DNA of 32,908 nucleotides. It comes from an uncultured virus (IMG/VR IMGVR_UViG_3300025010_000041) (taxonomy: Duplodnaviria; Heunggongvirae; Uroviricota; Caudoviricetes). Positions within the stretch are counted from its first letter, which is position 1. Every line of letters begins with the position of its first letter. The DNA is taken from the IMG/VR virus record IMGVR_UViG_3300025010_000041. One strand, given 5' to 3'. Both the position numbers and the translations under genes were made by a program. Below, piece by piece: positions 4,721-28,297 of the stretch. The notes below the pieces were generated by a model. It worked only from the letters and a program-made list of their open reading frames with translations, was not told the origin of the DNA and searched no databases.

Positions 4721-6178
4721 ATGTCTGATATCAACTACCAACAGCTTGCGCAGGCCCTGCTGGCCGAGAATTTTGCCGGCAACGTGCGCACCAAAGCCGT
4801 GTCGAGTACGCCGAACGCGTCCTACGGTCACGGTGGCAAAGGCGGCCTCTTTAGCGCCCCCGGCATGAGCCGCCCGTTATTCTCCGCTCTGATCCTGCCC
4901 AACACTGGCCTCGCCTCGAAGTTGCCCGTGCGCACCAGCACTGAAACCAACCCGCTTTACGGTATCATCACCGGCGTGACCGCCTCCGAGGGCGAAGAAG
5001 CGACCGGCGTCTGCGATGATCCCCCGCAGGCCGGGTTGACCAAACTCTGCACCCACACGTTCGTTTTTGGGCGCTTCTCCCGTGCGAGCAAAGTCTTTGA
5101 CATTGACCGCGCCGGAAAGAACATCAACCGCAGCGACTTCATGGACTTCCAGTTGTACGGCAACGCCCTGGATACCGGCAACCCGCTGGCTCCCTCCGGC
5201 ATGACTGACGCCGCCTCAATTGCCAAGAACGAAGTCGCTAAAGCGATGTTCGAGATGGGTGTGGCCTGGTCGCGCGACTTCGCCAAGAAACTCTACACCG
5301 GCAGTCCGGCGAACAACACCGCTGGTGGCGGGCACATGGAGTTCTACGGCCTCGAAACCCTGGTCAATGACGGCTATCGCGACGCCCTGACCGGCATCGC
5401 CTGCCCCGCCGCTGACGCCACGGTGGTGGACTTCGGCAGCCTGGACATTCGCGACAACGCCAATGCCATCCTGCGCCAGATCACCTACACCTATCGCAAC
5501 CTGCGCTTCCTGGCACGCCGAGCCGGACTTGACCCCGTCCAGTGGACGCTGGTCATGCCCTTCGGCCTGTTCTATGACCTGACCGAGATTTGGCCCATCG
5601 CCTACAACACCACCGCCGCCTCGGTCGTCCCGACCGGCGCGACCCTGTTTGTCGGCAGCGAAGGCCAGATCACGGCCCGCGACGCCATGCGCGGTGACAT
5701 GTACAACTACACCGGCCAGTACCTGATGATCGACGGCCAGGCTGTCCCGGTCACGATTGACGACTCTATCCCTGAAACTCAGGACGGCGTGTCGTTCACC
5801 TCGGACGTTTACTTCATTCCGCTGACCGTCCTGGGCGCGATCCCCGTCACTTACTGGGAAACCGTCAACTATGACGGCCCCGCAGGCCCGGTTGAAATGG
5901 CGCGTGCTTTCGCCCCTGGCGACAGCTACTACACCACGGACGGCGGGCGCTTCCTGTGGCACAAGAAACCCCCGACCAACTTCTGCGTTCAGGTCATCTC
6001 GAAGATGGAACCACGCCTGCTGCTGCTGACGCCCTATTTGAGCGCCCGCATCCAGAACGTCAAGTACATCCCGATCCAGCACGAACGCCAGTGGGACCCG
6101 ACTGACCCCTACTATGTCAATGGTGGGCGGACTTCTCAGGACACCACGGTGCCGAGCTACTACAGCCCGACCGCGTAA
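4721..6178 (+). CDS. major capsid protein (putative)
   Basis: AGGAGG RBS, strong C-ending codon bias, 485 aa, follows the scaffold, EFYGLETLV motif like HK97-fold capsids, followed by a terminator. Confidence 0.8.
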   Translation: MSDINYQQLAQALLAENFAGNVRTKAVSSTPNASYGHGGKGGLFSAPGMSRPLFSALILPNTGLASKLPVRTSTETNPLYGIITGVTASEGEEATGVCDDPPQAGLTKLCTHTFVFGRFSRASKVFDIDRAGKNINRSDFMDFQLYGNALDTGNPLAPSGMTDAASIAKNEVAKAMFEMGVAWSRDFAKKLYTGSPANNTAGGGHMEFYGLETLVNDGYRDALTGIACPAADATVVDFGSLDIRDNANAILRQITYTYRNLRFLARRAGLDPVQWTLVMPFGLFYDLTEIWPIAYNTTAASVVPTGATLFVGSEGQITARDAMRGDMYNYTGQYLMIDGQAVPVTIDDSIPETQDGVSFTSDVYFIPLTVLGAIPVTYWETVNYDGPAGPVEMARAFAPGDSYYTTDGGRFLWHKKPPTNFCVQVISKMEPRLLLLTPYLSARIQNVKYIPIQHERQWDPTDPYYVNGGRTSQDTTVPSYYSPTA

Positions 6179-7793: not shown

Positions 7794-8345
7794 ATGACAA
7801 AAGCAAGCGACCTATCCCACGCATTCGGCTTTTTGAAGCAGGCAGAAGTATCTCTGCTGACCCGCCTGGCCGAAAGCCTACCCGACGGAGCCGTGTTTAT
7901 CAACGTTGGAGCCGGAGTGGGCACGTCTGCTCTGACCGTAGCCGAAGCGCGGCCCGATGTGAAGATTTACACCGTTGATATTTCCGAGGGCGGGCCGGAG
8001 GGCGGGCTTGAGAACGAGCGCAACGCATTCACTCACGCCGGACTGTCGGAAAGTCTACCAACGCAAGTATTGGGCGATTCGCGGGCAGTCGGTAGAGACT
8101 GGCAGTTCGAGAGCGCCGACCTGCTGATGATTGACGCCGATCATGCCTACGCTTCTTGCCGCGGCGACCTGGAAGTCTGGACGCCACACCTGAAAGCGGG
8201 CGGCGTGCTGCTGATCCATGACTACGAACCGAAAATATGGCCCGACGTGTTCAAAGCGACGGGCGATTTTATCCGCTCCCAGCCTGAAAGTTGGGAGTTT
8301 ATCGAAGTGCAACATACGCTGATTGCGTATAGGAGTAAGTCATGA
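7794..8345 (+). CDS. class I SAM-dependent methyltransferase (Methyltransf_24-like)
   Basis: INVGAGVGTS motif I, YTVD, GDS, DLLMIDADH, LKAGGVLLIHDY. Confidence 0.88.
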   Translation: MTKASDLSHAFGFLKQAEVSLLTRLAESLPDGAVFINVGAGVGTSALTVAEARPDVKIYTVDISEGGPEGGLENERNAFTHAGLSESLPTQVLGDSRAVGRDWQFESADLLMIDADHAYASCRGDLEVWTPHLKAGGVLLIHDYEPKIWPDVFKATGDFIRSQPESWEFIEVQHTLIAYRSKS

Positions 8346-9013
8346 AAATTCTAAAAACTGAGGGTGACGTAAAGCTGCCCGCCTCTGCTTATCTGGTAGT
8401 TGAGGATGCCGAAAAGCCGTCCACCTGGCACTTGCGCATTGGCGGCGAATCGGGCCTTCCTGACCCCGCTCACATGGGCGCAGCCTGGGCAGCACTGCAC
8501 GAGGGATACCGCGGCGAGAAGTACGCAGGCCCGCAAAAAGAGGAGGCCCTGGCGAAGTTGAAGAAACTCTACGCCGCGCTGAAACGCGACACCCCCGATG
8601 TTGAGAAGAAAGAGTATGACGGGTCATGGAGCGAACTCACCTGGAAAGAAGCGCCCTCGTTTGGTGAATGGCTGATCCGCTCCAAAGAAGATGCTCCGGT
8701 TGAACCAAACGAAGCCGTTGATCCCAAAGCCCTGCACTTACGCGTGGGACGGGCGCTGGCAAAGTTTGGCTTGAAGCCCTCGAAAGCCATTGACACCGGC
8801 GAACACGCCGAGGCGCACGGGTCGGCCTGGGTTGCACCCAAAACCGACTTCGAGAAGATCAAAACCGGCTTGTGGGACTTGGGTTATCGGCCCAAAGGCA
8901 AAGGCAAGTATTTCCGCGGCCCGGTCATGATCGAAACCGGACAGGACGCCGAGAACCTGTACCTGTATATCACAGACGACAACGGCCCTGCCCAAAAGAA
9001 GGCGGCGGCATGA
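8342..9013 (+). CDS. hypothetical two-domain protein
   Basis: 223-aa ORF with ATGA overlaps at both ends; the N-terminal PASAYLVV..PSTWHL..GAAWAAL..GYRG domain resembles modules I associate with phage head proteins, function unknown. Confidence 0.65.
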   Translation: MKILKTEGDVKLPASAYLVVEDAEKPSTWHLRIGGESGLPDPAHMGAAWAALHEGYRGEKYAGPQKEEALAKLKKLYAALKRDTPDVEKKEYDGSWSELTWKEAPSFGEWLIRSKEDAPVEPNEAVDPKALHLRVGRALAKFGLKPSKAIDTGEHAEAHGSAWVAPKTDFEKIKTGLWDLGYRPKGKGKYFRGPVMIETGQDAENLYLYITDDNGPAQKKAAA

Positions 9014-9636
9014 GTGTCTCGCGCAAACAGCAGGCGCTAAAGCGACGTCTTGCGATTGCGTTTGGCGCGCCACTGCTGCCCGATGAAATGCCAACTACGC
9101 CCCCGGTCAAAGCGAGGGCATTGGCGGCGGCGTTCGGCTACCTCTTTCCAGAGGAAGTCACGCTGCTGTCTGTCCTGGCCGAAAGCCTGCCCGCCGGAGC
9201 CGTGTTTGTCAACATTGGAGCGGGGTCTGGAACGAGTTCGCTTTGCGTGACAGAAACCAATCCGGCAGTGAAAGCCTACACAGTAGATATTTCTGACGGT
9301 GGCCCATTTGGCGGACTGGAAAACGAGCGCAACGCCTTCGCTGAAACCGGACTGCCGCTGCCGTCACAAATTTTAGGCGACTCGCACGCCGCGGGTAAAC
9401 TGTGGATCGGCGGCAAAGTAGACATGCTATTTGTGGACGCCGACCACAGCTTCGAGGGGTGCAACGGTGATATTGAGGCGTGGCACCCGCACGTTGTGGC
9501 GGGCGGGATCATTGTCTTTCATGATTACGAACGAGACTTCTGGCCCGAAGTGAAACAGGCCGTAGACGCCGCGGCTGAGCGGTATGGTTGGGAGTTGATT
9601 GAACAGCGCGGCACCATGATCGCATTCAGGAAGTGA
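9010..9636 (+). CDS. class I SAM-dependent methyltransferase, paralog of 7794..8345
   Basis: ATGA-coupled start 9010; VNIGAGSGTS, YTVDISDGGPFGGLENERNAF (nearly identical to paralog), FVDADH, GGIIVFHDY. Confidence 0.88.
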   Translation: MSVSRKQQALKRRLAIAFGAPLLPDEMPTTPPVKARALAAAFGYLFPEEVTLLSVLAESLPAGAVFVNIGAGSGTSSLCVTETNPAVKAYTVDISDGGPFGGLENERNAFAETGLPLPSQILGDSHAAGKLWIGGKVDMLFVDADHSFEGCNGDIEAWHPHVVAGGIIVFHDYERDFWPEVKQAVDAAAERYGWELIEQRGTMIAFRK

Positions 9637-9637: not shown

Positions 9638-12571
9638 ATGAAAATCTACATCGAACCGACGCCGGGGAATGCCCCGCCGAGCAACGGGATCGGGCGCGTT
9701 GTTCACGCCCAATTTGAACACCTGCCAAAGTTAGGGATTGAGATCGTCAAAACCTACCGCAAAGCAGACGTGATCGCTTCTCACGTGGAGCAGTTCAATT
9801 TGCCACGCGTAGACGTGCTGCACTCCCACGGTCTCTATTTTGACGATATTCCCAACGCCGGTTATGACGCCTGGCAGTACACCGCCAATGCCCACATTGC
9901 CCAAGCTGTGCGCAGAGCTAAGATTCTAACCGTCCCTGCCCCCTGGGTTGCGATGCCGTTCAAGCGAGATATGCACCTAAGCCCGTGGATCGTCCCGCAT
10001 GGAATTGACTTTGCCGATTGGAACCCCGGCGAGAATCGGGGCTATCTATTCTGGAATAAAGGCCGCGCCAATGACGTCTGTGACCCCGTCCCGGCATGGG
10101 AGTTGGCAGAAGCAGGTCTGCCGGTGGTATCGACGTTCAACCCATTGAACCGTCCAACCGGAAAGTTGAAAGTGGTCGGGGCACAATCGTTCGAGAAGAT
10201 GCGCCTGCTGATCCAATCGGCGGATATTTACCTCGCCACTACCCCCGAAACTTTCGGGATCGGCACCCTCGAAGCAATGGCCTGTGGCTTGCCCGTCCTG
10301 GGCTACCGTTGGGCAGGAACCGCCGATATCGTTCAGCACATGGAAACCGGGTATCTGGTTGAGCCGGGCGACGTCAACGGGCTAAAAGTCGGCTACCAGT
10401 GGTTGAAAGCCAACCGCGAGGCCGTGGGCGCGGCGGCCAGAGAGTTCGCTTCGCGCTTCGATTGGCCCAATGTGATCGGGGAGTACGCCAAAGTCTATCA
10501 AGCGGCCATGTCCATTCCAGACGAAAAGACCGTCGCGGTTGGGATTATCTCTTACAACTATGCGCAATATTTACCGAAAGCGATAGAGTCTGTCCTGGCC
10601 CAATCGCGCGCGCCAAACGAGATTGTGGTGATAGATGACGGGTCAACCGATAACACCGCCGAAGTCGTTTCCCGCTATTCTGACCGGGTGCGTTATATCC
10701 GGCAGGAAAACCAGGGGGTTGCCGCGGCCCGCATGAACGCAATTGCGGCGACCAAGTCAGACTTTTTGACCCTGCTTGACGCCGACGATTGGTTGGAGCC
10801 GTCATTTGTGCTGGCAATGGAGCGGGCGCTTGTGGCTGACCGTGGACTTGGGATCGCTTACGCCGGGTTTATGAGTTGCAACAGCGAGGGCAAAAAGAGC
10901 GGTACGGTCTACGGAACGCCGTTCGATTGGGAAATCCAGGCGCGTGGTGGTGTGCCCCCGGCGACGGCAGTTCCTACGCCGTCCGCTTGCATGTTCAGGC
11001 GCAGAATGTTCGAGCGGGCCGGCAGTAAAATCTATCAAGAGTTCGCACCCGGCGAGGATGCTGAGTTTTGGGCACGCGGGCTGTCTACCGGCTTCACGGC
11101 GCAACTGGTGACAAGCGAGGCGCTGACCAATTACCGGATGCACGCTGAGGGCGCAAGTAAAAAGCGCAAGTACGTTCGGGTGGACACCTGGCTGCCGTGG
11201 ATGCGTGACAAAATCTACCCGTTCGCTGCCCCGGTCAAGTCACAGATACGCGTACGCTCTTACATGCTGCCGCGCGTATCCGTGATTATTCCAGTTGGGC
11301 CGGGGCACGAGAAACTCTTGCTTGACGCGGTGCGCTCTTTAGAAGGGCAAAGCGAACGACTGTGGGAGTTGATCGTGGTCGCCGATACCGACCTGCCTGA
11401 ATCGGATATACGCACCGTTTACCCGTTCGCAACGGTTGTACCGGGGCGCAGGTTAGGCGCTGGCGCGGCCCGTAATGACGGGTTGAAAGAGGCCAGAGGG
11501 ACATTCGTCGTCTTTCTTGACGCCGATGATTACCTGCACCCGGAGGCGCTTGAGAAATTACTTGCCGCCTATGACCAAAGCGGGTATGTCTACTCGGACT
11601 GGTACGCCGTCACCGGAGCGTCCGCCGAAGTGAAACAGTTGAAAGAGTACGATCCTAACAGTGACAATCTTCAACACGCCGTGACCGTACTCATGCCAAC
11701 GGTCTGGGCCAAGCGGCTGAAATTTGACGAATCTCTCCCGGCGTGGGAGGATGTGGAATATTACAACCAGGCGCGCTCTCTTGGCTTCTGCGGGAAGCGT
11801 GTAGCCGAACCTCTGTTATACTATCGGTTAGAGACTGGGAAGCGCAGAGCCGCGGCCCTGAAAGAGAAAAAGAAACTTGCCGCCTATATTGAGAAGCGGC
11901 AAAAAGCGAGGCATATTATGGCTTGTGGATCATGCCCCTCCCCCGCGGGCGGGGTGATTATGAAAGCAAAGAAGGAGTTGAATCCAATGGGAAACCAAAC
12001 CGAACCAATCGCCTCCCCGCAAGACGGGGTGGTCAGAATGATATACACCGGCGGTGGGCGCGGCGTGCGCACCTATATCGCCAACAAACGCACCTACCGC
12101 GCCGGCGACTCTGACGGGAGCCGAGCTATCAATGCTCACCCCGCCGACGTTGAACGACTGCGGGCGCTGGGCTTCGAGGTGGTGGCGCGTCCACTGCCCC
12201 AGGCGCAGCCGTTGGTGACGGCCCCTATCCCCGCACCTGAACCCGCTCTCGCGCCCGCGCCGATGCCCACTCCGGCAGTTGAAAAGACGGTGGTGACGGC
12301 CAAGCCGATGGCGACCAATGCCCACGTTCCCGCACCGGCAGTGACCCCGGTCAAGAAGCAAGCGCCGAAACCCGCCGATCCGCTGCCCATACCGGAGGAA
12401 GTGACGGAAATCCCGCCTATGCCTGAGACGGTGCGCGGACTGCGGGCGGCCATTGCTGCCGGAGTTGGCGAAAGCGTGATCCGCTCATGGGAATACGATG
12501 AGCGCGCCAAAGGCGATAGCGCCCGCAAAGAGTACCTGAAAATCTTACGTCAAGCCAAACAGGGTGCGTAA
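9638..12571 (+). CDS. multidomain glycosyltransferase (GT4 + GT2 + GT2 + Pro/Ala-rich C-terminus)
   Basis: ETFGIGTLEAMACGLPV (GT-B/GT4); YN..YLPKAIESVLAQ..VIDDGSTD..LLDADD (GT2); VSVIIPV..AARN.G..FLDADD (second GT2). Confidence 0.92.
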   Translation: MKIYIEPTPGNAPPSNGIGRVVHAQFEHLPKLGIEIVKTYRKADVIASHVEQFNLPRVDVLHSHGLYFDDIPNAGYDAWQYTANAHIAQAVRRAKILTVPAPWVAMPFKRDMHLSPWIVPHGIDFADWNPGENRGYLFWNKGRANDVCDPVPAWELAEAGLPVVSTFNPLNRPTGKLKVVGAQSFEKMRLLIQSADIYLATTPETFGIGTLEAMACGLPVLGYRWAGTADIVQHMETGYLVEPGDVNGLKVGYQWLKANREAVGAAAREFASRFDWPNVIGEYAKVYQAAMSIPDEKTVAVGIISYNYAQYLPKAIESVLAQSRAPNEIVVIDDGSTDNTAEVVSRYSDRVRYIRQENQGVAAARMNAIAATKSDFLTLLDADDWLEPSFVLAMERALVADRGLGIAYAGFMSCNSEGKKSGTVYGTPFDWEIQARGGVPPATAVPTPSACMFRRRMFERAGSKIYQEFAPGEDAEFWARGLSTGFTAQLVTSEALTNYRMHAEGASKKRKYVRVDTWLPWMRDKIYPFAAPVKSQIRVRSYMLPRVSVIIPVGPGHEKLLLDAVRSLEGQSERLWELIVVADTDLPESDIRTVYPFATVVPGRRLGAGAARNDGLKEARGTFVVFLDADDYLHPEALEKLLAAYDQSGYVYSDWYAVTGASAEVKQLKEYDPNSDNLQHAVTVLMPTVWAKRLKFDESLPAWEDVEYYNQARSLGFCGKRVAEPLLYYRLETGKRRAAALKEKKKLAAYIEKRQKARHIMACGSCPSPAGGVIMKAKKELNPMGNQTEPIASPQDGVVRMIYTGGGRGVRTYIANKRTYRAGDSDGSRAINAHPADVERLRALGFEVVARPLPQAQPLVTAPIPAPEPALAPAPMPTPAVEKTVVTAKPMATNAHVPAPAVTPVKKQAPKPADPLPIPEEVTEIPPMPETVRGLRAAIAAGVGESVIRSWEYDERAKGDSARKEYLKILRQAKQGA

Positions 12572-18869: not shown

Positions 18870-19081
18870 TCTACGAGGAAGTCAACGGCATAATCATTGG
18901 CGGCGACACCTGGCCCTACGAATTTTGGATTACCCACCCTACCGGACACGTTTTGGCGGGTCTGCATGATCGGGTTGCACGCGGCCACTTTTCCTCAGAC
19001 GCCGAAGCGATTGACTGGTTCAAGAGTAACTACCCGGAGCAGTTTGCGGCGGGGGTAGAAATGCGAGTGTTTGACAGATGA
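18866..19081 (+). CDS. hypothetical protein
   Basis: ATGA-coupled, GGTGAGG upstream, 71 aa. Confidence 0.65.
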   Translation: MIYEEVNGIIIGGDTWPYEFWITHPTGHVLAGLHDRVARGHFSSDAEAIDWFKSNYPEQFAAGVEMRVFDR

Positions 19082-19247
19082 CGCGACACAGCGAAATTTA
19101 CCCCCTGGATGCCCACAGGAAGCCCGTAGCGACGTTTTACCGTGAAATAGGTAATTCCCCCATGAGTGAAGCGCAGTCAATCGCCAAAATCGGCTTGCGG
19201 GCAATCGGCGTTCTTGCTGGTAAACTCGCATACGCTATTCAAGAAAG

Positions 19248-19258
19248 TGTGGTAGAAT
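19248..19258 (+). promoter_or_regulatory. extended -10 promoter of the Y RNA cluster
   Basis: TGTGGTAGAAT; expected +1 (about 19265) coincides with the first base of Y RNA 1. Confidence 0.7.
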
Positions 19259-19264
19259 ATCTTT

Positions 19265-19328
19265 GTCGGCGGCGAATGAAACGGTTACTTCTTTTGGTGA
19301 AAAACACCGTTCCAGTCAGTTCCCCGAC
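19265..19328 (+). ncRNA. Y RNA-like 1 (minimal)
   Basis: 5' GTCGGCGGCGAA pairs with 3' TTCCCCGAC leaving bulged C residues (Ro60-binding-like stem); inner stem AACGGT/ACCGTT; TACTT motif; upstream of the TROVE gene. Confidence 0.75.
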
Positions 19329-19349
19329 GAATATTGCACCTTGAAATCA

Positions 19350-19432
19350 TTGGCGGCGAATGTAGCAGATACTTAGGCTCATATCCTGAATTGGCCCCGT
19401 GCCAATCAATTCTGCTGCAACTTGTTCCCCAA
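19350..19432 (+). ncRNA. Y RNA-like 2
   Basis: TTGGCGGCGAA / TTCCCCAA closing stem; TGTAGCAGA/TCTGCTGCA inner stem; TACTT then AGG-CTCATAT-CCT hairpin and TTGGC/GCCAA hairpin. Confidence 0.78.
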
Positions 19433-19446
19433 GTAGTTTATAAACA

Positions 19447-19577
19447 ATCGGCGGCGATAGAAACAGTTACTTCGGCTGTTAACCGGGTTGTTGCAGGTTC
19501 GAGTCCTGTCAGAACGGGAAACCGTTTTGTAGCTCAATTGGTAGAGCACCTACGTTCTGTTTCGCATGTTCCCCGAT
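19447..19577 (+). ncRNA. Y RNA-like 3, YrlA-type with permuted tRNA domain
   Basis: ATCGGCGGCGA / TTCCCCGAT closing stem; GAAACAG/CTGTTTC; T arm GCAGG-TTCGAGT-CCTGT precedes acceptor stem CAGAACGG-GAAA-CCGTTTTG and D arm GCTC-AATTGGTA-GAGC. Confidence 0.88.
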
Positions 19578-19591
19578 GAATGCAATCAAAG

Positions 19592-19627
19592 AAGCCTGGG
19601 GTTTGTCTCTCAGGCTTTTATTTTTTT
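19592..19627 (+). terminator. intrinsic terminator after Y RNA cluster
   Basis: AAGCCTG ... CAGGCTT stem followed by TTATTTTTTT. Confidence 0.8.
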
Positions 19628-19644
19628 AGACAGTGGAGGCACAA

Positions 19645-21069
19645 ATGTCAAGTACGAATGTCAAACGACCTGATACCCGTTTCTCAAATGATCGGCTGGC
19701 CGGCGGATACGGCGCGCTGGCGGCCACGCAAGACTCTCTGGCGCTCTTGCGCCGGGCGGTTCTCGCCAATCTGTTGTGGGAAAATATCGCCTACGAGGAC
19801 GGCGAGTCTGTAGTGGCGAATATCACCCGGCTTGTGCCGCTGTGCAAGCCCGAAGATGTGGCGACCCTGGCAATCGAGGCCCGCACCCAGCAGAAGTTGC
19901 GCCACGTGCCGTTGTTCCTGGCGCTGCAAATGGCCGAACACAAAACCCACCTGCCGCTTGTCGGGAGTCTGTTACCGAAGATTTGTCTGCGGCCCGATGA
20001 TCTGACTGAGTTCGTTGCGCTCTACTGGAAAGAGAAAAAGCGCCCGCTGGCAAAGCAGATCAAGATCGGCCTGGCGGCGGCTTTCCAGAAGTTTGACGCT
20101 TACCAGTTGGGCAAGTACAAAGCCGATGGCAAGACCGTCTCTCTGCGCGACGTGATGTTCCTGGTTCACCCGACCCCTGCGAACGACGCTCAGGCGGGAG
20201 TCTGGAAACAGTTTGCCGATCAGACTCTACCCGCTCCCGATACCTGGGAAGTGGCGCTCTCCACCGGCAAAGACAAGAAAGCCACCTGGGAGCGTCTGAT
20301 TTTGGAAAACAAGTTAGGCGGCTTGGCGTTCCTGCGCAACTTGAAGAACATGCAAGCGGCGGGAGTTTCTCGCACGACTCTGGCGCATGGGTTTACTCAT
20401 GTCAAAACCGGCTGGCTCTTACCGCTGGACTTTTTGAAGGCAGTCAAAATGGCTCCCGAATATGTGCGCGAGATCGAAACTATGATGCTGAATACGCTTC
20501 GGAATATGCCCAAGCTGACCGGGCGCACGATCATGGTGGTGGACGTTTCCGGCTCTATGGCGAGTAAGATTTCAGAGAAAAGCGATTTTACTCGCATGGA
20601 CGCGGCCCTGGCAATGGCGATGTTAGCCGCCGAAGTCTGCGAATCGGTTGCAATTTACGCCACCGCCGGCAGTGATAGAGACCGCCAGCACAACACGGCG
20701 AAAGTTTCCGCCTATCACGGTTTTGGGTTGATCGAGTCCATTATGGGCGTTGGGAAGCAATTGGGCGGCGGCGGTATCTTTACTCGCCAGTGCCTGGAAT
20801 ATATCAAAGAGCAAGAGAAAGAGACCCCAGACCGGGTTATTATTTTCTCCGACTCTCAGGACTGCGATTTCCCTGATAAGCGCACGCCGCGCCCGATTGG
20901 TGAGCGCAACTATATCTGTGACGTTTCAGCCAATGCGCACGGGGTCGCTTACAAGAGCGTTTGGTCGGCTGAGATTTCGGGCTTTAGCGAACACTTCCTG
21001 AGCTTCATCATGGCCCTGGAGGGCTTGCGGGTAGAAGTTGGAGCAGACGACGAATTGCAAACTCAATAG
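19645..21069 (+). CDS. Ro60/Rsr-like TROVE + vWA domain RNA-binding protein
   Basis: GGAGG RBS before ATG 19645; TROVE motifs LRHVP, RPDDLTE, FDAYQLGKY, LRDVMFLVHP, PDTWE, AFLRNL; vWA MIDAS VDVSGSM, GGGIF, IIFSDSQ. Confidence 0.92.
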   Translation: MSSTNVKRPDTRFSNDRLAGGYGALAATQDSLALLRRAVLANLLWENIAYEDGESVVANITRLVPLCKPEDVATLAIEARTQQKLRHVPLFLALQMAEHKTHLPLVGSLLPKICLRPDDLTEFVALYWKEKKRPLAKQIKIGLAAAFQKFDAYQLGKYKADGKTVSLRDVMFLVHPTPANDAQAGVWKQFADQTLPAPDTWEVALSTGKDKKATWERLILENKLGGLAFLRNLKNMQAAGVSRTTLAHGFTHVKTGWLLPLDFLKAVKMAPEYVREIETMMLNTLRNMPKLTGRTIMVVDVSGSMASKISEKSDFTRMDAALAMAMLAAEVCESVAIYATAGSDRDRQHNTAKVSAYHGFGLIESIMGVGKQLGGGGIFTRQCLEYIKEQEKETPDRVIIFSDSQDCDFPDKRTPRPIGERNYICDVSANAHGVAYKSVWSAEISGFSEHFLSFIMALEGLRVEVGADDELQTQ

Positions 21070-21082
21070 TTTTTCAAAACGG

Positions 21083-21118
21083 AAAGAGCGGGTCAGAATC
21101 AATCTGGCTCGCTCTTTT
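21083..21118 (+). terminator. intrinsic terminator after TROVE gene
   Basis: AAAGAGCGGGTCAGA / TCTGGCTCGCTCTTT stem ending in a T run. Confidence 0.7.
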
Positions 21119-21237
21119 GTATACGCTAATCAACCTTTTTGTGACATTCTCCTTAATACAATATGTATTAAGTAAAGTGCATAAAAACATTTTACTATAC
21201 GAAAGAAAAGCGGCGATTTTCGCCAGAAATGGGGAAT

Positions 21238-21330
21238 TGTGGTATACTAATATTGTCGAAGTGCAGTTCGGCACATGGTATAATCAACCCGTCCCCGCTA
21301 ATCTGCTGCACACAGATTAGCGGGGATTTT
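21238..21330 (+). promoter_or_regulatory. tandem extended -10 promoters and 14-bp leader hairpin of the Cas7-like gene
   Basis: TGTGGTATACT 21238-21248, TGGTATAAT 21276-21284, perfect stem TCCCCGCTAATCTG/CAGATTAGCGGGGA 21292-21326 followed by TTTT. Confidence 0.65.
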
Positions 21331-21349
21331 CGTAACTTAGGAGGTTCGC

Positions 21350-21925
21350 ATGTATGTCGTTTCAATCACGGTTAAGGGCGTTTGTCCGTTACTTCAAAAC
21401 CGCTTCCCCATGCCAGAGTTCGGAGACCTGAGCAAGGGCGGCAAGAAGTCAACCGGCTCTCCTGACTATTCGCAAGAATGGCGCAGCCACCTGTACGCGG
21501 CTGGTGGAAAGATTTACCAGCCGTCCAGCCACTTCGAGGGCGCGATTATCAAAGCCGGGGCCAGCTTCAAAATCCAGGGCAAGCGCGGCAAAACTTATCG
21601 CGACTTACTCGCCGCGTCTATCATCATTGATCCCGAACAGATTCCCCACAATATGGACGTTCCCGAAGAACTGGATGCTGACGCCGACAAGCCGCTTTAT
21701 CTGGACGTGCGCCCGGTGGTTATTCAGCGGGCGCGCATTGTGCGCGTGCGCCCGGCGTTCAAGGCGGGTTGGGAATTGTCTTTCGAGATCGCGGTCGGTG
21801 ACGACGAAATCCAGCCCGACTTACTCCAGGACATTCTGGCAATGGCAGGAAAAAGCATTGGTATTGGCGACTTTCGCCCACGGTTTGGCCGCTTCAATGT
21901 GATTAACTTCGCGGTTCACAAATAA
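21350..21925 (+). CDS. stand-alone Cas7/RAMP-like RNA-binding protein
   Basis: AGGAGG RBS; RAMP layout: N-terminal strand ITVKGVCPLL, IYQPSSHFEGAI (equivalent to YIPGSSxKG), RP..W.LSFEI strand, C-terminal Gly-rich loop GIGDFRPRFGRF; no other cas genes in the window. Confidence 0.75.
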   Translation: MYVVSITVKGVCPLLQNRFPMPEFGDLSKGGKKSTGSPDYSQEWRSHLYAAGGKIYQPSSHFEGAIIKAGASFKIQGKRGKTYRDLLAASIIIDPEQIPHNMDVPEELDADADKPLYLDVRPVVIQRARIVRVRPAFKAGWELSFEIAVGDDEIQPDLLQDILAMAGKSIGIGDFRPRFGRFNVINFAVHK

Positions 21926-22035
21926 CTTTGTGGCGAGGGCAAGGTCAGGTCAGGAACGGCGCGGTCTGGCGTGGCGCGGTCTGGTCTGGCACGGATCGGC
22001 CCGGCACGGTAAGGTATGGCACGGTATGGATTTTT
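21926..22035 (+). repeat. GG(Y/A)-NN pentamer array 1 (putative guide RNA)
   Basis: Leader CTTTGTGGCGAG, then 19 GGH triplets in exact 5-nt phase (21938-22030) separated by 18 variable dinucleotides, ending GGTATGGA-TTTTT. Confidence 0.9.
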
Positions 22036-22135
22036 CTTTGCGGAGCGGGCAAGGTAAGCCGTGGCACGGTAGGGTGAGGCGAGGCATGGCGTGGTACGGT
22101 CAGGTAAGGTAAGGTATGGTATGGCTAACTTTTTT
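22036..22135 (+). repeat. GG(Y)-NN pentamer array 2 (putative guide RNA)
   Basis: Leader CTTTGCGGAGCG, then 16 triplets (15 GGY, one GCC) in 5-nt phase (22048-22125) with 15 variable dinucleotides, ending GGTATGGC then a T run. Confidence 0.9.
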
Positions 22136-22411
22136 GAGTTAGAAAACTTTCCGGGGGTGAAATTTCCCTGGTTTTCTCGTATGAGTCTTAGCGCCTGGAT
22201 ACCGCTTAAGCAATATGTTTATCTGCGCGACGGTGGCAAATGTCGCTATTGCGAAAAACCTACACTCTACGAGGAAACTCACTGTCACCACGTTTTAGAG
22301 TTATCAGAGGGGGGCACTAACCATCCCTCGAATCTAAAGACGCTTTGCAAAACGTGTCATAAAAAGCGCCACCCGTTTATGCTATCAGTGAGGGACAAAC
22401 TAAAAAAATAA
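22121..22411 (+). CDS. HNH endonuclease
   Basis: RDGGKCRYC ... HCHHVLELSEGGTNHPSNLKTLCKTCHKKRH; likely start ATG 22121 in the last unit of array 2. Confidence 0.92.
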   Translation: MANFFELENFPGVKFPWFSRMSLSAWIPLKQYVYLRDGGKCRYCEKPTLYEETHCHHVLELSEGGTNHPSNLKTLCKTCHKKRHPFMLSVRDKLKK

Positions 22412-22497
22412 TGCTATAATACAAGTGTCGGGCCTACTGTAGAGTAGGCCAGTCACGCGGAAATTGACGCCCGTTGCGATAACGGACGTCTTTTTTT
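22412..22497 (+). promoter_or_regulatory. extended -10 promoter, structured leader and attenuator-like terminator of tail operon
   Basis: TGCTATAAT 22412-22420; GGCCTACT-GTAG-AGTAGGCC 22431-22450; CGCGGAAATTGACG 22456-22469; GACGCCCGTT/AACGGACGTC stem followed by T7. Confidence 0.7.
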
Positions 22498-22521
22498 GTT
22501 TACACACAAGGAAGGTTTGAA

Positions 22522-24060
22522 ATGACGAATAAAATCACGACCGACGAGATCGTCAGTCAGCGGCATAAACGGAATTTTCTCCAGTGGGGCGGCCCCTATC
22601 CCGGCAACCGCCTGACCTATGCCGGCGTAGACGGCCAGTATGCCGCGGTGGACGGCGTGACTGTCCCCGAAGCGGGCGGGATTGACCCGATCTGGGTGCC
22701 CAACCCGTTTGTCCCTGGGCGCTACCGCCTGGTAGGCCGCTCAATTACCCCGCCTGATCTGGCGTCTATGACTCTGATGCTGAAAGAAAAGCACCGCTTT
22801 ATCCCGAAGCAGTTGAAGCCGATCAAATGCCCGATCAACATTTACGAACCGACCGGCACCTGCAAGAACCCGTCCGACTTCTTGCGCGGCTGGTCGGATT
22901 ACGTGCTGATCTACTCCCTGGGCCTGGTCTCCGAAAAAGACTTGGGTACTCGCACCACCTGGGACAGTGACGATGCGATGGAAGATTCGCTCTCGTTGAC
23001 CCTGGTCTCGATCTACCCGATTGGCTCTCTGGCGTTCTGCCAGGAAGCGAGTTCGGAGATCGACCGGCAGGTGGTGGACGTGGTCTTTGGTTCGGTTGAG
23101 CAATGCTCAGGCTGCGGCGCTGAGGATGACGGCACAAAGCGGATTTACGCCGTCACCAAATCCAGCGGCGGCTCGCCCGGTTTGCCGTCCGAGATTGTCT
23201 ACTCGCTCGATGGCGGGTTGACCTGGTCTCAGGCCAATATCGACGGCATGACCGTTGCGGAAGATGCCCTGGCAATCGAAGTCGCCGGGCAGTATGTGAT
23301 TGTGATCGGCGCGGGCGCGGTCTACTACTCCGAGTTGAACGCAGAAACCGGCGTCCCCGGAACGTTCACCAAAGTCACTACCGGGATCGTTGATGCCGGC
23401 ACCCCCCGCGACCTGTATGTCGCTTCTCCGCGTGAAATCTGGATGTGCGGCGACGGCGGCTATGTCTACAAGTCAACCGACGTCACTGCCGGATTTACTG
23501 CCGTTCTGGACGGTGGCGTCTACACCGACGATCTGAAACGGATCAGCGGCGACGATGACGGCACGATTGTTGCTGTGGGCGCAAACGGGCAAATCCTGTA
23601 CTCGACCAATCGCGGCGCGACCTGGACGAGTTCGGCGACCACCCCGACTGCTGCCACCCTGCAAGCGATCAACGCCAAGTCCGACCGCCTGTGGTGGATC
23701 GGCACCGCCACCGGGCTGGTCTACTACACGCAAAATGGCGGCGCTTCCTGGTCGCAACTGACTTTCAGCGGATCGGGCACCGGTCAAATCTATGACATTG
23801 TGTCAGCCACCGAAGAAGTCATGTACATCGCCAAAGACGACGCCACCCCCACCGCTTCGATCCTGGCGAGTTGGAACGGCGGGCAGGACTGGACAACCAG
23901 CAGCCCCCGGATCGTAGGCTTACCGGTCTTTGACTCGCCCACCCGGCTGGCCGTTCCCGACGCCGAGCCCGGTACCGCCGCCAACACCCTGGCCGTGGGC
24001 GGGATCGCAGGCGACGCCACTGACGGCATTCTGCTGATCGCCGTCGCTGCCTCTCTGTAA
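22522..24060 (+). CDS. putative major tail (tube) protein with C-terminal BNR/Asp-box beta-propeller
   Basis: Directly upstream of chaperone and tape measure genes; capsid-like codon bias; Asp-boxes YSLDGGLTW, YSTNRGATW, YTQNGGASW, ASWNGGQDW. Confidence 0.7.
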   Translation: MTNKITTDEIVSQRHKRNFLQWGGPYPGNRLTYAGVDGQYAAVDGVTVPEAGGIDPIWVPNPFVPGRYRLVGRSITPPDLASMTLMLKEKHRFIPKQLKPIKCPINIYEPTGTCKNPSDFLRGWSDYVLIYSLGLVSEKDLGTRTTWDSDDAMEDSLSLTLVSIYPIGSLAFCQEASSEIDRQVVDVVFGSVEQCSGCGAEDDGTKRIYAVTKSSGGSPGLPSEIVYSLDGGLTWSQANIDGMTVAEDALAIEVAGQYVIVIGAGAVYYSELNAETGVPGTFTKVTTGIVDAGTPRDLYVASPREIWMCGDGGYVYKSTDVTAGFTAVLDGGVYTDDLKRISGDDDGTIVAVGANGQILYSTNRGATWTSSATTPTAATLQAINAKSDRLWWIGTATGLVYYTQNGGASWSQLTFSGSGTGQIYDIVSATEEVMYIAKDDATPTASILASWNGGQDWTTSSPRIVGLPVFDSPTRLAVPDAEPGTAANTLAVGGIAGDATDGILLIAVAASL

Positions 24061-24625: not shown

Positions 24626-24845
24626 GGGTCGCGATGTTTTCTCGATATCCACTGCCAGGAGCGGGGTCAGTTACGCTCCGATCCTGGAGTGGGTACTGGC
24701 GGCACGCTGGGCCGGTTATACCTATGAGCAGTTTGAGAAAATGGACGGTGACAGGCAGTCGTTCTATGTCGCCGCCAGACGCGCTGAGTTGCAAATAGAG
24801 GCCGTAATGACCAAAGAAGCGAACAAGAAGGCGAAACAGAAATGA
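24609..24845 (+). CDS. frameshift extension of tail assembly chaperone (lambda T-like; not in ORF track)
   Basis: +1 frame is open across the gap: FQVRFRGRDVF...LEWVLAARWAGYTYEQFEKMDGDRQSFYVAARR...KAKQK; its TGA overlaps the tape measure ATG; no start codon with RBS at its 5' end. Confidence 0.7.
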   Translation, partial: FQVRFRGRDVFSISTARSGVSYAPILEWVLAARWAGYTYEQFEKMDGDRQSFYVAARRAELQIEAVMTKEANKKAKQK

Positions 24846-27800
24846 GCGGAATGCCTCTTGCCGGCGTTCAACTGGTGGCGCAAGACTACGCGCCGTTTAT
24901 GGCTGCAATGCAAAATGCAACCAAAGCGGTCGAAGCGTTTGGCGCGGCGACCACCAACAGCGGCAAGACCGCTATGCCTGCGCTTGCCGACGGTGCGAAA
25001 AGCGCCGCCAGTGGTCTGGACGGGCTGAACGTCCAGAGTCTGATCGGCGCGAACGTGGTCGGAAATTTATTGACCGGGGCTATTACAACCGCCTGGGATA
25101 AACTAACCGGATTTATCACGGCTGCGGCGAGTGGAACAGAGGCTCTCCAGGACTTGACCATTAATCTGGAAACGCTGGCGGCTCGCGAAATCCTCTATTC
25201 CGGTGCAACCGACAACATGAGCGAAGCCCTCGAAATGGGGGCAAGCAACGCTGCCGGGATGTTCGAGGAACTGGAAAAACTCTCAATTGCCAGCCCGTTC
25301 CCCTACCAGTCGGTTGTCAGCGTCTTTCAAATGGGGATGCAGTTCGGCCAAACGTCTGAAATGGCGATGAAACTGACCGGGGCAATTACCGACCTGGCCG
25401 CGGTCAATAAGGGCATTCCCGGTATCATGCAGCGTCTGAGTTACAACTTTTCGCAAATGAGCATGACCGGAAAAATCATGGGCCGCGATATTCGCGACTT
25501 GGCAATGGCCGGCCTCGACCTCAACAAAGTACTTAAGTTGCAATTGGGCCAGACGGTCAAAGAGGTCAATGCCGACCTATCCTCTGGCAAAATAATCTTT
25601 GAGGATGTTGCACAGGCACTGGTAGATTACACGGATAAATACATTGGCCCGGCGGCCAAGCGCGCCAGCCGGACGCTCGGCGGTTTGAAGTCCACTTTTA
25701 TGGACGTTTCGTTCTTTGCTGGTAAAAACCTGTTTCTCCCGGCTGCAAACGCTTTGTCTGAGGCGCTGGGAACGATGCTTGACAAAGCCCTGATGGTGAC
25801 AAATTCAAAAGCGTTTACCAACATTGGACTCGCTCTCGAATATGCCACAAAGGCAATGCTGGGGCTGAACAACGTCCACCAGAAAGTATTCGCGGCGGGA
25901 GATAAAATCTGGCAGGAGTACGGCAGTGCGGCGGAAGCGGCTGCGGACGGAATTTATGCCACAGAAATAGAGATGAACGCCGCTCAACAAAAATCCATTG
26001 ACGATATGCTGAGCGGCTGGTTAGAGGGCGCGGCTAATGCGCTTGAGTGGGGCGTAAAAACAATGGTTCAGTTTGCAGACGGGCTGATTGAAGGCGCCGG
26101 GACCGCAATCAACGACGCGCTGGACTGGATCAACGGGCTTTTAGAGTGGTGGTTGGCTCCTGGTTCTCCCCCGCGGGTTGCCCCAGACATTGACTCTTGG
26201 GGCGCTTCAACGATCAACGAATGGCTCAAGGGCTTTACTGAGGCCGACTTTGACTTAGTGGACGCTATCTCGAAGCCGCTCAAAGCGGCGCTCTCTCTCG
26301 CCGCCGACATGGGCGCGATTGGCGAGGGCGATATCAATGCAATCCTCTCTGACATTATCAAGAGTGCCATTGCCGCCGCCTCTGGAGTTGGTGGCATAGA
26401 AGAAGTTTTAGCAAAAATCCGCGCCACCGCCGGCCCGTTTGCCAACGAAGTTGCCGACCTGGCCGAAAAGCAGTTTTATCTTGCCGAAGCATCGAAAGAA
26501 GTTACTTACTGGCAGAACGAGTTGAACGCTGCCCAACAGCGGGCATTTACCGCCGGAAAAGCGGTCTCGAAGGGCGTGCAGGAGTACAACGACCTGCTGC
26601 GCAACGGAGCAAGCAAAGAGGTACTCAAGGCGAAACTGGCAGAAATCAACGCCAACCGCGAGGCCCAAAAAATCGCTGTCGGCGAGGCTCGAACGGCAGA
26701 GGAAAACGCCAGGGTTGCCGGCGAGGGTATCGACACAATCAAAGAGCAAATCAGCCTGCAAAGTCAACTGATTGAGCAAATGACGGAACTGGCGCGCCTG
26801 CAAATTCTACCCGCCGAAACAGGAAAAGGCGGGGGTGGTGAAGGCGGGGCTGCGGGGGCGGGCGGCGGCGGGGCCAGCGGCGGTAGCACCGTCAACGAAA
26901 TGCTGGAGAAAATGCGGTTGCAAGTCGAGGAAAAAGCCGCTGCAATCTGGAAGCCCATCAAAGATAAGTGGGACGAATCTTGGGGGCCGATCTACACGAG
27001 TGTTGCAGAGAAACTAGGCACTTTATGGGATAACCTTGTCTTAATCGCCGGCGAGTTGTGGAACTTTGCGGGTCTGGTTGTTACCGCAATTCAGACCGGC
27101 GATTGGCTCCCGGTTCAAACAGCCGTCACCACGAAACTAACCGAAGTCTGGGCCGCAATGAAGATCGCCATGCTGCACTCCGACAATCCGGTAGTGAGCG
27201 GCCTCGCCCAATCTATCCTGACCGGGAACTGGGAGTTTTTTAGAGCAAATCTATTGAGCGCGATCAACAAAACGATAGGCGAAACCAAAGACCAATTAGT
27301 GACATTCCTGACTGCTACAGGAAATCCTATTGCAGTTGCGCTTGGGGCGGGCATTGCGACGGCAGACTGGAAGCCGTTCCAGGATGCGGTATCGGAAGAA
27401 GTGAATACCGCCGTTGAGGCCGCAGGGGAATCGGCAGTTGAGGTTCTTTGGAGCAATTTGACAAATGCCGAAACCTGGGGAAAAACAATCGGAACGGGTA
27501 CCGAAACATTCCTGGCTGTCGGCGCTGATATTGCGGCGGGCATTATCAACGGGTTATATGACGCGGTTATGAATCCGGAAAATCCAACCTGGCTAAAAGC
27601 CACGTCTGATTGGCTTGGCGCCATCAAGACCGCTCTATTCGCCAATATGGTAACTTTTGTGGCGGCGTTTGCGGGAGAATTGACCAACAAGTCTGCCGTC
27701 GAAATTCTCAAGTCATGGTCTGCGATATGGACAAACGCTGTAAACCTGGCGAAGTTTTTCACCTACTTCATTGGGCCGATTGGGTTATTCTTTGACGAAA

Positions 27801-28297
27801 ACTTCAAAGCCGCTGCACAGGGGATTGTTGACACAATCGTAGCGAAATTCAATGAGTTGATATACTCGAAAGACTCTCCGTTTGACGATATTGGACAAGG
27901 TATCGTCAAGGGAATTATCGCCGGGATTACAGCCACCGCCACCACCCTAGCCGAAGCGGCAATATCAGCGGCGAAAGGAGCGGTAGACGCAGTGCTGGAA
28001 TATCTCGGTATTAAGTCGCCCTCGAAACTGTTTATGGATATCGGCGCGAACGTCTCACTCGGCATGGGCAAAGGCATTGAACAGGCCGCCAACGAACCGG
28101 CGCAATCGGCCAATCAAATGGCTGCCGGAACCGTCAAAGCCGTGCGCCCCCCGTCTACCAGTCGCGTCCAGCCACCCGCGACCCGCGCCGGAGTCAGCGT
28201 CCAGATTGGTGACGTGTATATCTCGGACGCGCAAGAGGGACAAATGTTCGAGGCCAGAGTTGAGCGGGCCGTGATGAAAGCACTAGGAGCAGTCTAA
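24842..28297 (+). CDS. tape measure protein
   Basis: 1151 aa, Ala/Gly-rich helical; tape-measure motif (SPF.Y ... NFSQM..TGKIMGRDIRDL); C-terminal LGIKSPSKLFMDIG. Confidence 0.92.
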   Translation: MSGMPLAGVQLVAQDYAPFMAAMQNATKAVEAFGAATTNSGKTAMPALADGAKSAASGLDGLNVQSLIGANVVGNLLTGAITTAWDKLTGFITAAASGTEALQDLTINLETLAAREILYSGATDNMSEALEMGASNAAGMFEELEKLSIASPFPYQSVVSVFQMGMQFGQTSEMAMKLTGAITDLAAVNKGIPGIMQRLSYNFSQMSMTGKIMGRDIRDLAMAGLDLNKVLKLQLGQTVKEVNADLSSGKIIFEDVAQALVDYTDKYIGPAAKRASRTLGGLKSTFMDVSFFAGKNLFLPAANALSEALGTMLDKALMVTNSKAFTNIGLALEYATKAMLGLNNVHQKVFAAGDKIWQEYGSAAEAAADGIYATEIEMNAAQQKSIDDMLSGWLEGAANALEWGVKTMVQFADGLIEGAGTAINDALDWINGLLEWWLAPGSPPRVAPDIDSWGASTINEWLKGFTEADFDLVDAISKPLKAALSLAADMGAIGEGDINAILSDIIKSAIAAASGVGGIEEVLAKIRATAGPFANEVADLAEKQFYLAEASKEVTYWQNELNAAQQRAFTAGKAVSKGVQEYNDLLRNGASKEVLKAKLAEINANREAQKIAVGEARTAEENARVAGEGIDTIKEQISLQSQLIEQMTELARLQILPAETGKGGGGEGGAAGAGGGGASGGSTVNEMLEKMRLQVEEKAAAIWKPIKDKWDESWGPIYTSVAEKLGTLWDNLVLIAGELWNFAGLVVTAIQTGDWLPVQTAVTTKLTEVWAAMKIAMLHSDNPVVSGLAQSILTGNWEFFRANLLSAINKTIGETKDQLVTFLTATGNPIAVALGAGIATADWKPFQDAVSEEVNTAVEAAGESAVEVLWSNLTNAETWGKTIGTGTETFLAVGADIAAGIINGLYDAVMNPENPTWLKATSDWLGAIKTALFANMVTFVAAFAGELTNKSAVEILKSWSAIWTNAVNLAKFFTYFIGPIGLFFDENFKAAAQGIVDTIVAKFNELIYSKDSPFDDIGQGIVKGIIAGITATATTLAEAAISAAKGAVDAVLEYLGIKSPSKLFMDIGANVSLGMGKGIEQAANEPAQSANQMAAGTVKAVRPPSTSRVQPPATRAGVSVQIGDVYISDAQEGQMFEARVERAVMKALGAV

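Follow-up and report, generated by a model that had tools for sequence, protein, structure and literature searches.

What do two arrays of short repeats do beside a phage gene whose first codons one of them appears to spell, two bases out of every three? The question is raised by a stretch of 32,908 nucleotides (nt) from an uncultured groundwater phage of the Caudoviricetes (IMG/VR IMGVR_UViG_3300025010_000041), which we analysed as a whole and call the window (W in locus lists, where L with a number denotes another fetched locus or contig). Here vipr, a gene for a small RAMP protein, is followed by two vrRNA arrays, an HNH gene and the gene that appears to be targeted, which encodes 512 amino acids (aa). 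Judged from sequence comparison and a modelled fold, the locus is a VIPR (Viral Interference Programmable Repeat) system, and every defining feature that lends itself to an in-silico check was found. We consider it probable that the second vrRNA is aimed at the allele of the adjoining gene carried by rival phages, that the phage's own copy is spared, and that guide and own allele form a linked pair excluding the rival allele.

VIPR systems combine a RAMP protein of ~20 kDa, Vipr, with vrRNAs, in which 9-16 YNNGG repeats are followed by a conserved tail; the NN pairs read double-stranded DNA, one base being skipped per unit, usually the wobble base, and targets lie on either strand, with no protospacer-adjacent motif (10.64898/2026.04.26.720920). 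The natural targets described in that preprint are satellites, prophages and rival VIPR loci, its Vipr set is a PSI-BLAST family seeded on X1U2U4, and its seven VIPR types have different accessory genes, some of them nucleases. Marks of such a system are also a RAMP fold composed of an RRM core, a glycine-rich loop and a thumb, arrays of >=4 units beside vipr, expressed vrRNAs (~100 nt) that co-purify with Vipr, and binding of the complex to double-stranded DNA. Structures of the Vipr filament on vrRNA and of the R-loop triplex are reported in a companion preprint (10.64898/2026.04.26.720927), and a third treats phage-satellite competition, in which some guides fit rivals better than the carrier's own copy (10.64898/2026.10.15.759431). 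Transcriptional repression is the only VIPR activity demonstrated in the available text of these preprints. For comparison with the window, loci of relatives were fetched from genome contigs (43) and from viral contigs (80).

The features of the locus are as follows.

21350..21925, plus strand: vipr, predicted to encode a 191-aa RAMP (Cas7-like) protein with the C-terminal G-rich loop GIGDFRPRFGRF
21929..22039, plus strand: vrRNA 1, placed by parsed repeats and the handle consensus of the clade
22039..22178, plus strand: vrRNA 2, placed by parsed repeats, the clade handle consensus and a hairpin prediction; the 3' end is putative
22121..22411, plus strand: HNH accessory gene, 96 aa from the ATG at 22121, Pfam HNH PF01844
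22392..22497, plus strand: promoter-like site, leader and terminator-like hairpin, assigned to the neighbouring gene and outside the cassette
22522..24060, plus strand: putatively targeted gene, a 512-aa structural-module protein with a BNR/Ycf48-like propeller
22528..22562, plus strand: near-target of vrRNA 2 in the phage itself, codons 3-14 of that gene, NKITTDEIVSQR
24842-28297: tape-measure gene, after the targeted gene and a 165-aa open reading frame (ORF)

A gapped match between vrRNA 2 and the adjoining gene

The two arrays consist of 5-nt units, Y-N-N-G-G, arranged head to tail between the vipr stop codon and the HNH ORF. vrRNA 2 begins with the 5' handle TGCGG-AGCGG-G (22039-22049) and continues from 22050 with 15 in-phase units, whose NN are AA AA GT AC AG GA GA AT GT AC CA AA AA AT AT. 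When the first 11 of these are read as NNx against 22528-22559 (AAT AAA ATC ACG ACC GAC GAG ATC GTC AGT CA), 19/22 bases and 8/11 dinucleotides agree, and the skipped bases all fall on third codon positions, since codon 3 of ORF 22522-24060 begins at 22528. The in-frame gapped match to the next gene that a preliminary description of this DNA had pointed out is hereby confirmed, and recalculation of its binomial estimate returned the same value (about 2.5e-9 per site). The wobble-insensitive code that it had proposed equals the '1-nt skip rule' published for VIPR (10.64898/2026.04.26.720920).

Over both strands of the window, 19/22 is the best match with a gap of 1, the runner-up reaching 15/22. 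With gaps of 0 and 2 no score exceeds 15, and a gap of 3 finds the array itself only; gap 1 alone yields an outlier, as expected for targeting by the 1-nt skip rule. In the shuffle test proposed earlier, a score of 19 was reached by 0/3000 shuffles of unit order and by 0/3000 shuffles of bases (0/6000 in all), with a maximum of 18 (7 and 11 shuffles, respectively). After correction for the choice of endpoint and for the presence of two arrays, the window taken alone gives p about 0.01-0.02, which is good but not overwhelming evidence.

Over 12 units, the site in the phage itself agrees with the guide at 19/24 NN positions, with mismatches in Ile5, Thr7, Ser12 and Arg14. The preliminary description had regarded the last four units as an unmatched, shared tail. 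This holds for the last three; unit 12 (AA) also fits relatives, which have Lys there, and the guide therefore probably comprises 12 units (22050-22109) and the shared 3' handle three rather than four, TAAGG TATGG TATGG (22110-22124).

Alleles of the putative target gene in relatives

The 512-aa product (22522-24060) lies two ORFs upstream of the tape-measure gene. Earlier labelled a tail tube protein, it is recognised in ESM Atlas and PDB sequence searches as a BNR/Ycf48-like propeller only, with no evidence for a tail tube; the label was a reasonable positional guess and nothing more. A search of its first 100 residues against a large protein collection returned 17 homologues, and we expressed the vrRNA 2 guide as codon classes, [KN][KN] V T [RS] [DE][DE] [IM] V T [HQ] [KN], for comparison with them. 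The phage's own protein (NKITTDEIVSQR) satisfies 8/12 of these classes. The closest non-identical homologue, P0273 (NKITSDEIVTQK), satisfies 11/12. The background, obtained with other guides and with the antisense reading, is 4-7 codon classes anywhere in the homologues. As far as codon classes tell, the sequence to which vrRNA 2 is directed is that of the ~12 codons following Met-Thr in the downstream gene, in the spelling of related phages, and the phage's own copy departs from it at 3-4 of the 12 codons. Two further loci, L002 and L006, have the target gene without the cassette, their target protein being 52% identical.

Sister strains

L003 and L004 are metagenome contigs 90-100% identical to the window around the locus, L004 and the window coming from like groundwater samples. 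The identity between window and L004 is distributed as follows.

17520 to about 21270, upstream backbone: 100%
21280-22190, vipr, both arrays and the first HNH codons: 64-87%
rest of the HNH gene: 94-96%
22400-23100, downstream backbone: 100%

A swapped vipr/guide module thus sits within 3.7 kb and 0.7 kb of otherwise 100% identical DNA. In the arrays of L003 and L004 every GG is kept and most NN differ from those of the window. Their second guide (GT AC GC GA GA AT GT AC CA AA CA AA AG) addresses the same site as the window guide, shifted by two codons; it fits the homologue P0276 (LTADEIVTQKHKR) at 12/13 codon classes and the unchanged site in its own genome at 20/26 bases. The window and L004 strains differ, in essence, in the vipr/guide module, and each retains a guide for that one neighbouring site. 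P0004, a third Vipr variant, is 75% identical to both others; it and P0273 each lie on a single 12,632-nt Logan contig, which is probably one and the same.

These comparisons support the earlier proposal that the guide is aimed at the orthologues of relatives while the self copy escapes by mismatches: P0273 satisfies 11/12 codon classes against 8/12 for the phage's own protein, the sister-strain guide fits P0276 on the same site, and similar flank-directed near-matches occur at other loci of the clade, described below. A self match poorer than the match to rivals is also the logic reported, for a different class of target, in 10.64898/2026.10.15.759431.

As a separate observation, one 4x contig of run X13 seems to lead straight from 21248 to 22405, in effect a loss of vipr, both arrays and the HNH gene; the joint, with only 30 letters on one side and unknown letters inside it, is too weak to build on and may reflect a replaced cassette or an artefact.

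Vipr, the arrays and the HNH gene

No Pfam family matched the 191-aa protein; it matches phrog_4652 (function unknown) at 1.8e-18, and it has 462 close relatives and 2446 at the level of 50% representatives (E<=0.001). Among GenBank phages there was a single distant Vipr match, and the 512-aa protein had none. Folded with 144 homologues, Vipr gave an AF2 model with a pLDDT of 94.9 and a pTM of 0.88, for which Foldseek found 104 PDB chains at E<=0.001. The best PDB matches are Cas7, Csm3 and Cmr4 chains from effectors of types VII and III, at E 3e-6 to 1e-4 and TM about 0.5-0.6. G171, G173, D174, R176, P177, G180 and F182 are nearly invariant among the 144 homologues, and so is the G-rich loop GIGDFRPRFGRF. 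By its modelled fold, the 191-aa ORF is a small RAMP-fold Vipr protein.

With a detector requiring >=7 GG-phased units within 2.5 kb of vipr, arrays were found near vipr in 120/126 sources with a vipr match. Across the units of the clade, position 1 is T or C in 543/661 and positions 4-5 are G in 620/661 and 622/661; in the last three units, AA and AT account for 72 of the NN and the other dinucleotides listed for 59. vrRNA 1 of the window consists of the 5' handle TGTGG-CGAGG-G (21929-21939), 18 in-phase units (21940-22029) and a T-rich end (22030-22039). The last ~4 of its 18 units belong to the shared AA/AT-rich 3' handle, which leaves 14 guide units. No significant gapped match of vrRNA 1 was found in the window, where 869/1500 shuffles score as well.

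Behind the units of vrRNA 2 follow a small hairpin, CUAACU..AGUUAG, and a terminator-like hairpin (22151-22171) with a subsequent TTTTCTC. This second hairpin sits within the first 20 codons of the HNH gene, whose likely start codon, ATG 22121, is itself inside the last repeat unit of vrRNA 2. A T to C change turns a G-U pair of the window hairpin into a G-C pair in L003 and L004, so that the stem is preserved. It is possible that the hairpin both ends vrRNA 2 and throttles HNH expression.

Tandem Repeats Finder reported array fragments only and no CRISPR-like repeats in the window, and no Cas family was among its annotated ORFs; the locus has the minimal VIPR layout of vipr plus one accessory gene, without cas genes or a CRISPR array. 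Rfam recognised no family in the whole window at gathering thresholds, and an E-value search of 19000-22600 found nothing on the arrays. Early ideas for the arrays, namely protein-binding repeats of the TRAP/CsrA kind and G-quadruplex DNA, were dropped in favour of VIPR.

The HNH ORF matches Pfam HNH PF01844 at 9.4e-12. A homologue of it follows vipr and arrays in 25 sources, 13 of which are IMG/VR contigs, and in these sources Vipr is at least ~50% identical to that of the window. This clade occupies structural-gene modules of viral contigs, and the other neighbours of its cassettes are mostly unrelated among the 25 sources. In an alignment of 20 HNH sequences the motif CxxC..HH..N..N..CxxC-H is invariant (both CxxC pairs, HH, two Asn and the last two His). 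From this conservation, the HNH gene is to all appearances part of the vipr/vrRNA cassette. Prediction of a complex between Vipr and the HNH protein gave scores on both sides of the mark (0.00, 0.47 and 0.29 against 0.32).

Between the cassette and the targeted gene, a promoter-like site (GGGACA-17-TG-TATAAT, 22392-22420) is followed by a short structured leader and, at about 22466-22497, by a hairpin and T run resembling an intrinsic terminator. The region 22392-22497 is 100% identical in L003 and L004, and an analogous element, judged by eye, precedes the homologous gene in the cassette-less L002.

We also observed that such a module, a promoter-like site (TG-TATAAT/TATACT) with a hairpin-terminator, occurs twice, before vipr (21113-21340) and before the 512-aa gene (22392-22497), and that both copies resemble late-promoter/antitermination units. 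Summed contig depth at 21113-21313 exceeds the depth on either side several-fold, reaching ~90 at 21157, which indicates an element common to many other contigs. In L001, which carries a 33%-identical Vipr homologue, arrays lie on both sides of the gene (3647-3866 and 4548-4785), each ending T-rich, and those upstream have 21 units each.

Guides of related cassettes

Each of the 53 HNH-clade guides was run against the locus it comes from, with 200 shuffles for comparison. Three long matches stand out.

W: 19/22 NN over 11 units, codons 3-13 of ORF 22522-24060, p ≤0.005
L110: 28/34 NN over 17 units, in a minus-strand 850-aa ORF, 275 bp past the last array, p ≤0.005
L055: 20/24 NN over 12 units, in a 228-aa ORF about 600 bp past the HNH gene, p 0.015

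In all three the frame of the gene is kept and the wobble base is the one skipped; the mismatches are conservative (Val/Ile, Thr/Ser, Ala/Gly) or consist of a Leu codon-family switch. The targets in L110 and L055 have similarity to tail proteins. When the test was restricted to the 1.2 kb beyond the cassette, with the 1.2 kb upstream as control, p<0.05 was obtained downstream in 5/20 testable loci (L110, W, L055, L060 and L003, the last sharing its target with W) and upstream in 1/21. Guides of the HNH clade thus repeatedly near-match the gene just downstream of their cassette, a pattern that the available text of the VIPR preprints does not describe. No enrichment was seen for 278 guides of 101 non-HNH loci (10 at p≤0.049, no long footprint), and this lack of self matches agrees with the no-self-hit statement of 10.64898/2026.04.26.720920. 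The guides of the clade, pooled and run against all 130 sources under a harsh mismatch penalty, gave nothing above shuffles.

Two loci allow a guide to be compared with a site lacking the cassette. L057 and L059 share the backbone genes c33-c38 at about 70% DNA identity and carry their cassettes at different positions: that of L059 lies between c34 and c35, just upstream of the small gene c35, where L057 has a 107-bp spacer only, its own cassette being elsewhere in the backbone. The third guide of L059 matches L057 at 4012-4034 (minus strand) with 15/16 NN, in frame, over codons 14-21 of c35 (p=0.02 over the whole 11.7-kb locus). The c35 of L059 itself matches at 11/16 NN and encodes almost the same peptide, HSDRLYLRC as against HSDRLYIRC in L057, with AGC, AGA, TTA and AGA where L057 has TCT, CGT, CTT and CGC. 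A code blind to the wobble base registers a synonymous change only when a Ser, Arg or Leu codon passes to the other family of its amino acid. Such switches affect 4/4 eligible codons inside the footprint and 2/5 outside, which suggests codon-family switching in the L059 footprint but is not significant (Fisher about 0.12). The reciprocal scan, from L057 to L059, gave no significant match, nor did scans of other locus combinations, including L056 and L062 in either direction.

In three non-HNH loci, L125 (6034-6062), L101 (778-794) and L040 (2431-2558), the best own-locus matches fall in or just before the locus's own vipr; they are individually weak (p 0.016-0.049) and recall the published vrRNAs that target vipr.

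Relation to known systems

The locus shares with published VIPR systems a small single RAMP protein, YNNGG units in which GGY is conserved and NN hypervariable, and a conserved 3' part. Further shared traits are a phage-borne location, arrays beside vipr, a 1-nt skip at the wobble base, competitor targets and one accessory gene. The characterised type II systems (SUSP1, P. fulva) are described with a DNA-binding Vap1, a pseudoknot tail, and satellite or prophage-regulator targets; unlike them, the locus studied here has a 96-aa HNH protein, a 3' handle of 3-4 AA/AT units, a 5' handle TGYGG-NNNGG-G, and a guide aimed at alleles of the gene that adjoins the cassette. In the SUSP1 family, as here, guides fit relatives better than the carrier's own copy and so avoid autoimmunity (10.64898/2026.10.15.759431); in the available text of that preprint, however, the targets are the vipr genes or vrRNA loci of rivals, the outcome is silencing, and there is neither a nuclease nor adjacency to a structural gene. 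Types III and V resemble the locus in having a predicted nuclease as accessory (HNH is named in the legend of Fig. S21 of the VIPR preprint) and vrRNA matches in viruses. The preprint places these types preferentially in the defence islands of cellular genomes and assigns them a role in host immunity, whereas the present clade is found on viral contigs and points at alleles of a neighbour. The Cas7 filaments of class 1 CRISPR effectors (Csm3, Cmr4, type VII Cas7) have the same fold and a thumb that periodically interrupts pairing, but differ in a 6-nt period with one flipped base, contiguous CRISPR spacers and multi-subunit complexes.

Two groups of mobile nucleases offer further parallels. 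The free-standing homing endonuclease genes of T-even phages (HNH/GIY-YIG) bring about intronless homing or marker exclusion. As in those systems, a nuclease gene is lodged between conserved genes, and the distribution is sporadic, with insertion sites that differ among related genomes; the target would likewise lie nearby in the neighbouring gene of relatives, and the phage's own site would be resistant by substitutions. Their specificity resides in the protein; here it would reside in a reprogrammable RNA, acting through a separate RAMP filament. The omega-RNA-guided nucleases TnpB and IscB of IS200/605 elements promote transposon retention or homing, and the proposed arrangement resembles them in that the RNA-guided nuclease of a mobile element is pointed by its guide at the element-free allele beside the insertion site. 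They differ in their unrelated folds (a single RuvC/HNH effector with contiguous pairing), in needing a target-adjacent motif, and in a guide that is fixed by the transposon end.

Proposed mechanism and alternatives

We propose that the 191-aa Vipr, by analogy with the published structures, would polymerise on each vrRNA, hiding GGY and presenting the NN pairs, and that these would read double-stranded DNA two bases at a time, skipping each third (wobble) base. The phage's own copy would be spared by its three or four mismatched units. In a mixed infection, the complex would bind the rival allele near its promoter, and the HNH protein could be recruited to nick or cut that allele; at the least, the complex would block transcription of the rival tail operon. 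Since guide and immune allele lie side by side, they are inherited together, and together they may act selfishly, as a linked pair that keeps the rival allele out, by marker exclusion or by true homing.

Several points weigh against this interpretation. P0273 is known as a protein only, its Ser would have to be encoded by AGY to suit the guide, and it retains Ile where the guide has Val. The self match, 86% over 11 units, is above the 80% NN threshold used for targets in 10.64898/2026.04.26.720920, whose authors report that self-searches gave no self hit at >=80% NN. The available text of the VIPR preprints states no mismatch tolerance, and self-immunity is therefore something we infer. For the HNH-linked type, nuclease activity, RNA expression and recruitment of the HNH protein are predictions. 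The significance of the match within the window is modest, since 10/1500 shuffles reach the observed value when the run score is freed of endpoints over the whole window. The perfect target that the preliminary description had expected in relatives did not turn up: in IMG/VR there were 0 matches to the 11-unit and 12-unit patterns of window array 2 (the latter with R at unit 3) and to the 13-unit pattern of L003. Finally, vrRNA 1 gave no match in the window, in L003/L004, in the L002 contig (where <=3 mismatches were allowed) or, as a perfect 14-unit pattern, in IMG/VR.

That an unrelated repeat array should resemble the neighbouring gene by chance is hardly credible. With endpoints left free, 10/1500 shuffles do as well, and the guide is A-rich, with a mildly high score in the gap-0 scan too (14/400); however, 0/6000 shuffles reach 19/22, and the match is in frame and in the adjoining gene. 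The comparative data exclude chance: a sister strain's guide matches the same site, relatives show protein-level matches of 11-12 codons over a background of 4-7, and the pattern recurs in L110, in L055 and from L059 to L057. It is very improbable as well that the imperfect match serves self-regulation, the phage's own VIPR binding the start of its own tail operon weakly and timing late expression. A self match above the published 80% NN threshold (10.64898/2026.04.26.720920) and a site just after the promoter/terminator element would fit such a role, but relatives fit better in both comparable cases (W/P0273 and L059/L057), two diverged guide modules are both mismatched to the same self site (19/24 and 20/26), the authors' searches of other clades, as far as the preprint text goes, gave no self-hits, and a nuclease partner would make self-binding dangerous. 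Self-regulation, an alternative in the preliminary description, has thus lost support, being disfavoured by the better fit of relatives and by the attached nuclease.

Two other accounts share the rival allele as target. The complex might act by silencing alone, like the characterised type II systems, blocking transcription at the start of the rival gene, while the HNH protein serves another role, for example in phage DNA processing, and accompanies the cassette on other grounds. Repression is the sole VIPR activity demonstrated in the preprint text, and the target is proximal to a promoter (promoter-like site 22392-22420, target from 22528). We nevertheless regard silencing alone as unlikely, given that the HNH gene stays beside vipr and arrays in 25 sources with differing neighbours, that the first codon of the gene falls within the final vrRNA unit, that its catalytic residues are invariant, and that flank-directed guides were observed in the HNH clade only. 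The other account is RNA-guided homing, in which the cassette would cut the sensitive flanking allele of a co-infecting relative and repair would copy in the cassette together with the immune allele. Raised as an alternative in the preliminary description, it gains support from targets situated, in W, L110, L055 and L060, 30-600 bp beyond that end of the cassette which carries the HNH gene, and from the third L059 guide, which matches c35 of L057 at 15/16 NN where L057 has the 107-bp spacer only. In c35 of L059 the peptide HSDRLY(L)RC is kept, but each of the 4 Ser/Arg/Leu codons in the footprint belongs to the alternative family. The mostly unrelated flanking genes among the 25 sources, the module swap with sharp boundaries in otherwise identical genomes and the invariant nuclease motif fit homing too. 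Against it, the cross-locus 'empty site' is a single case (p=0.02 over the whole 11.7-kb locus), the reciprocal L057 guides miss L059, and the codon-family switch is not significant (4/4 vs 2/5). Moreover, no close cassette-less relative of the window phage was recovered (the target proteins of L002 and L006 share only 52% identity with its own), selection against suicidal recombinants can account for the linkage of guide and immune allele without copying, and cleavage is not demonstrated for any VIPR type in the text of the VIPR preprints; the word 'homing' is absent from the main text of 10.64898/2026.04.26.720920, 10.64898/2026.04.26.720927 and 10.64898/2026.10.15.759431. We therefore put homing forward tentatively, as an idea with a real though minor chance of being correct. 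Homing is a sharper version of the preferred explanation, exclusion of the rival allele by a linked guide and immune allele, and does not contradict it. It is conceivable, if doubtful, that the whole is an RNA-programmed, gene-drive-like cassette, immune through conservative substitutions or Ser/Arg/Leu codon-family switches.

Other features of the phage genome

A Ro60/TROVE gene lies upstream of the cassette at 19633-21069 (Pfam TROVE 2e-18, phrog_850), and just before it, at 19486-19550, there is a partial match to YrlA, a Y RNA-like RNA (40 bits, E 1e-6, below gathering). Contig ends at the Y RNA-like site show tRNA-like sequence. The presence of the Ro60 gene is polymorphic: 19195-21085 is missing from L003, and in contigs of 3 runs position 19194 is followed by 22 other letters and then by 21098. 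The ORF at 2520-3965 has an RNA-ligase-like PHROG match (phrog_14859, 2e-21), which, together with Ro60 and the Y-like RNA, suggests a set for RNA repair or RNA quality control. Two DNA-methyltransferase-like ORFs (7794-8345 and 8872-9636) and a 977-aa multi-glycosyltransferase ORF (9638-12571) may act in DNA or surface modification.

Implications

Since the gapped code and this kind of system have by now been published (2026), the core finding made from the sequence of the window is real but no longer new. What the locus adds is a natural example in which no more than 1.3 kb holds the guide, the nuclease, the target gene and the immune allele. This, together with sister strains that differ only in the vipr/guide module, makes three matters directly addressable: the number of NN mismatches that protects a self site, cutting by HNH-linked VIPR systems and their spread by homing. 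If homing proved true, VIPR would be at once an interference system and a mobile, self-propagating one, and the cassette would represent the first homing endonuclease system whose specificity resides in a repeat-encoded guide.

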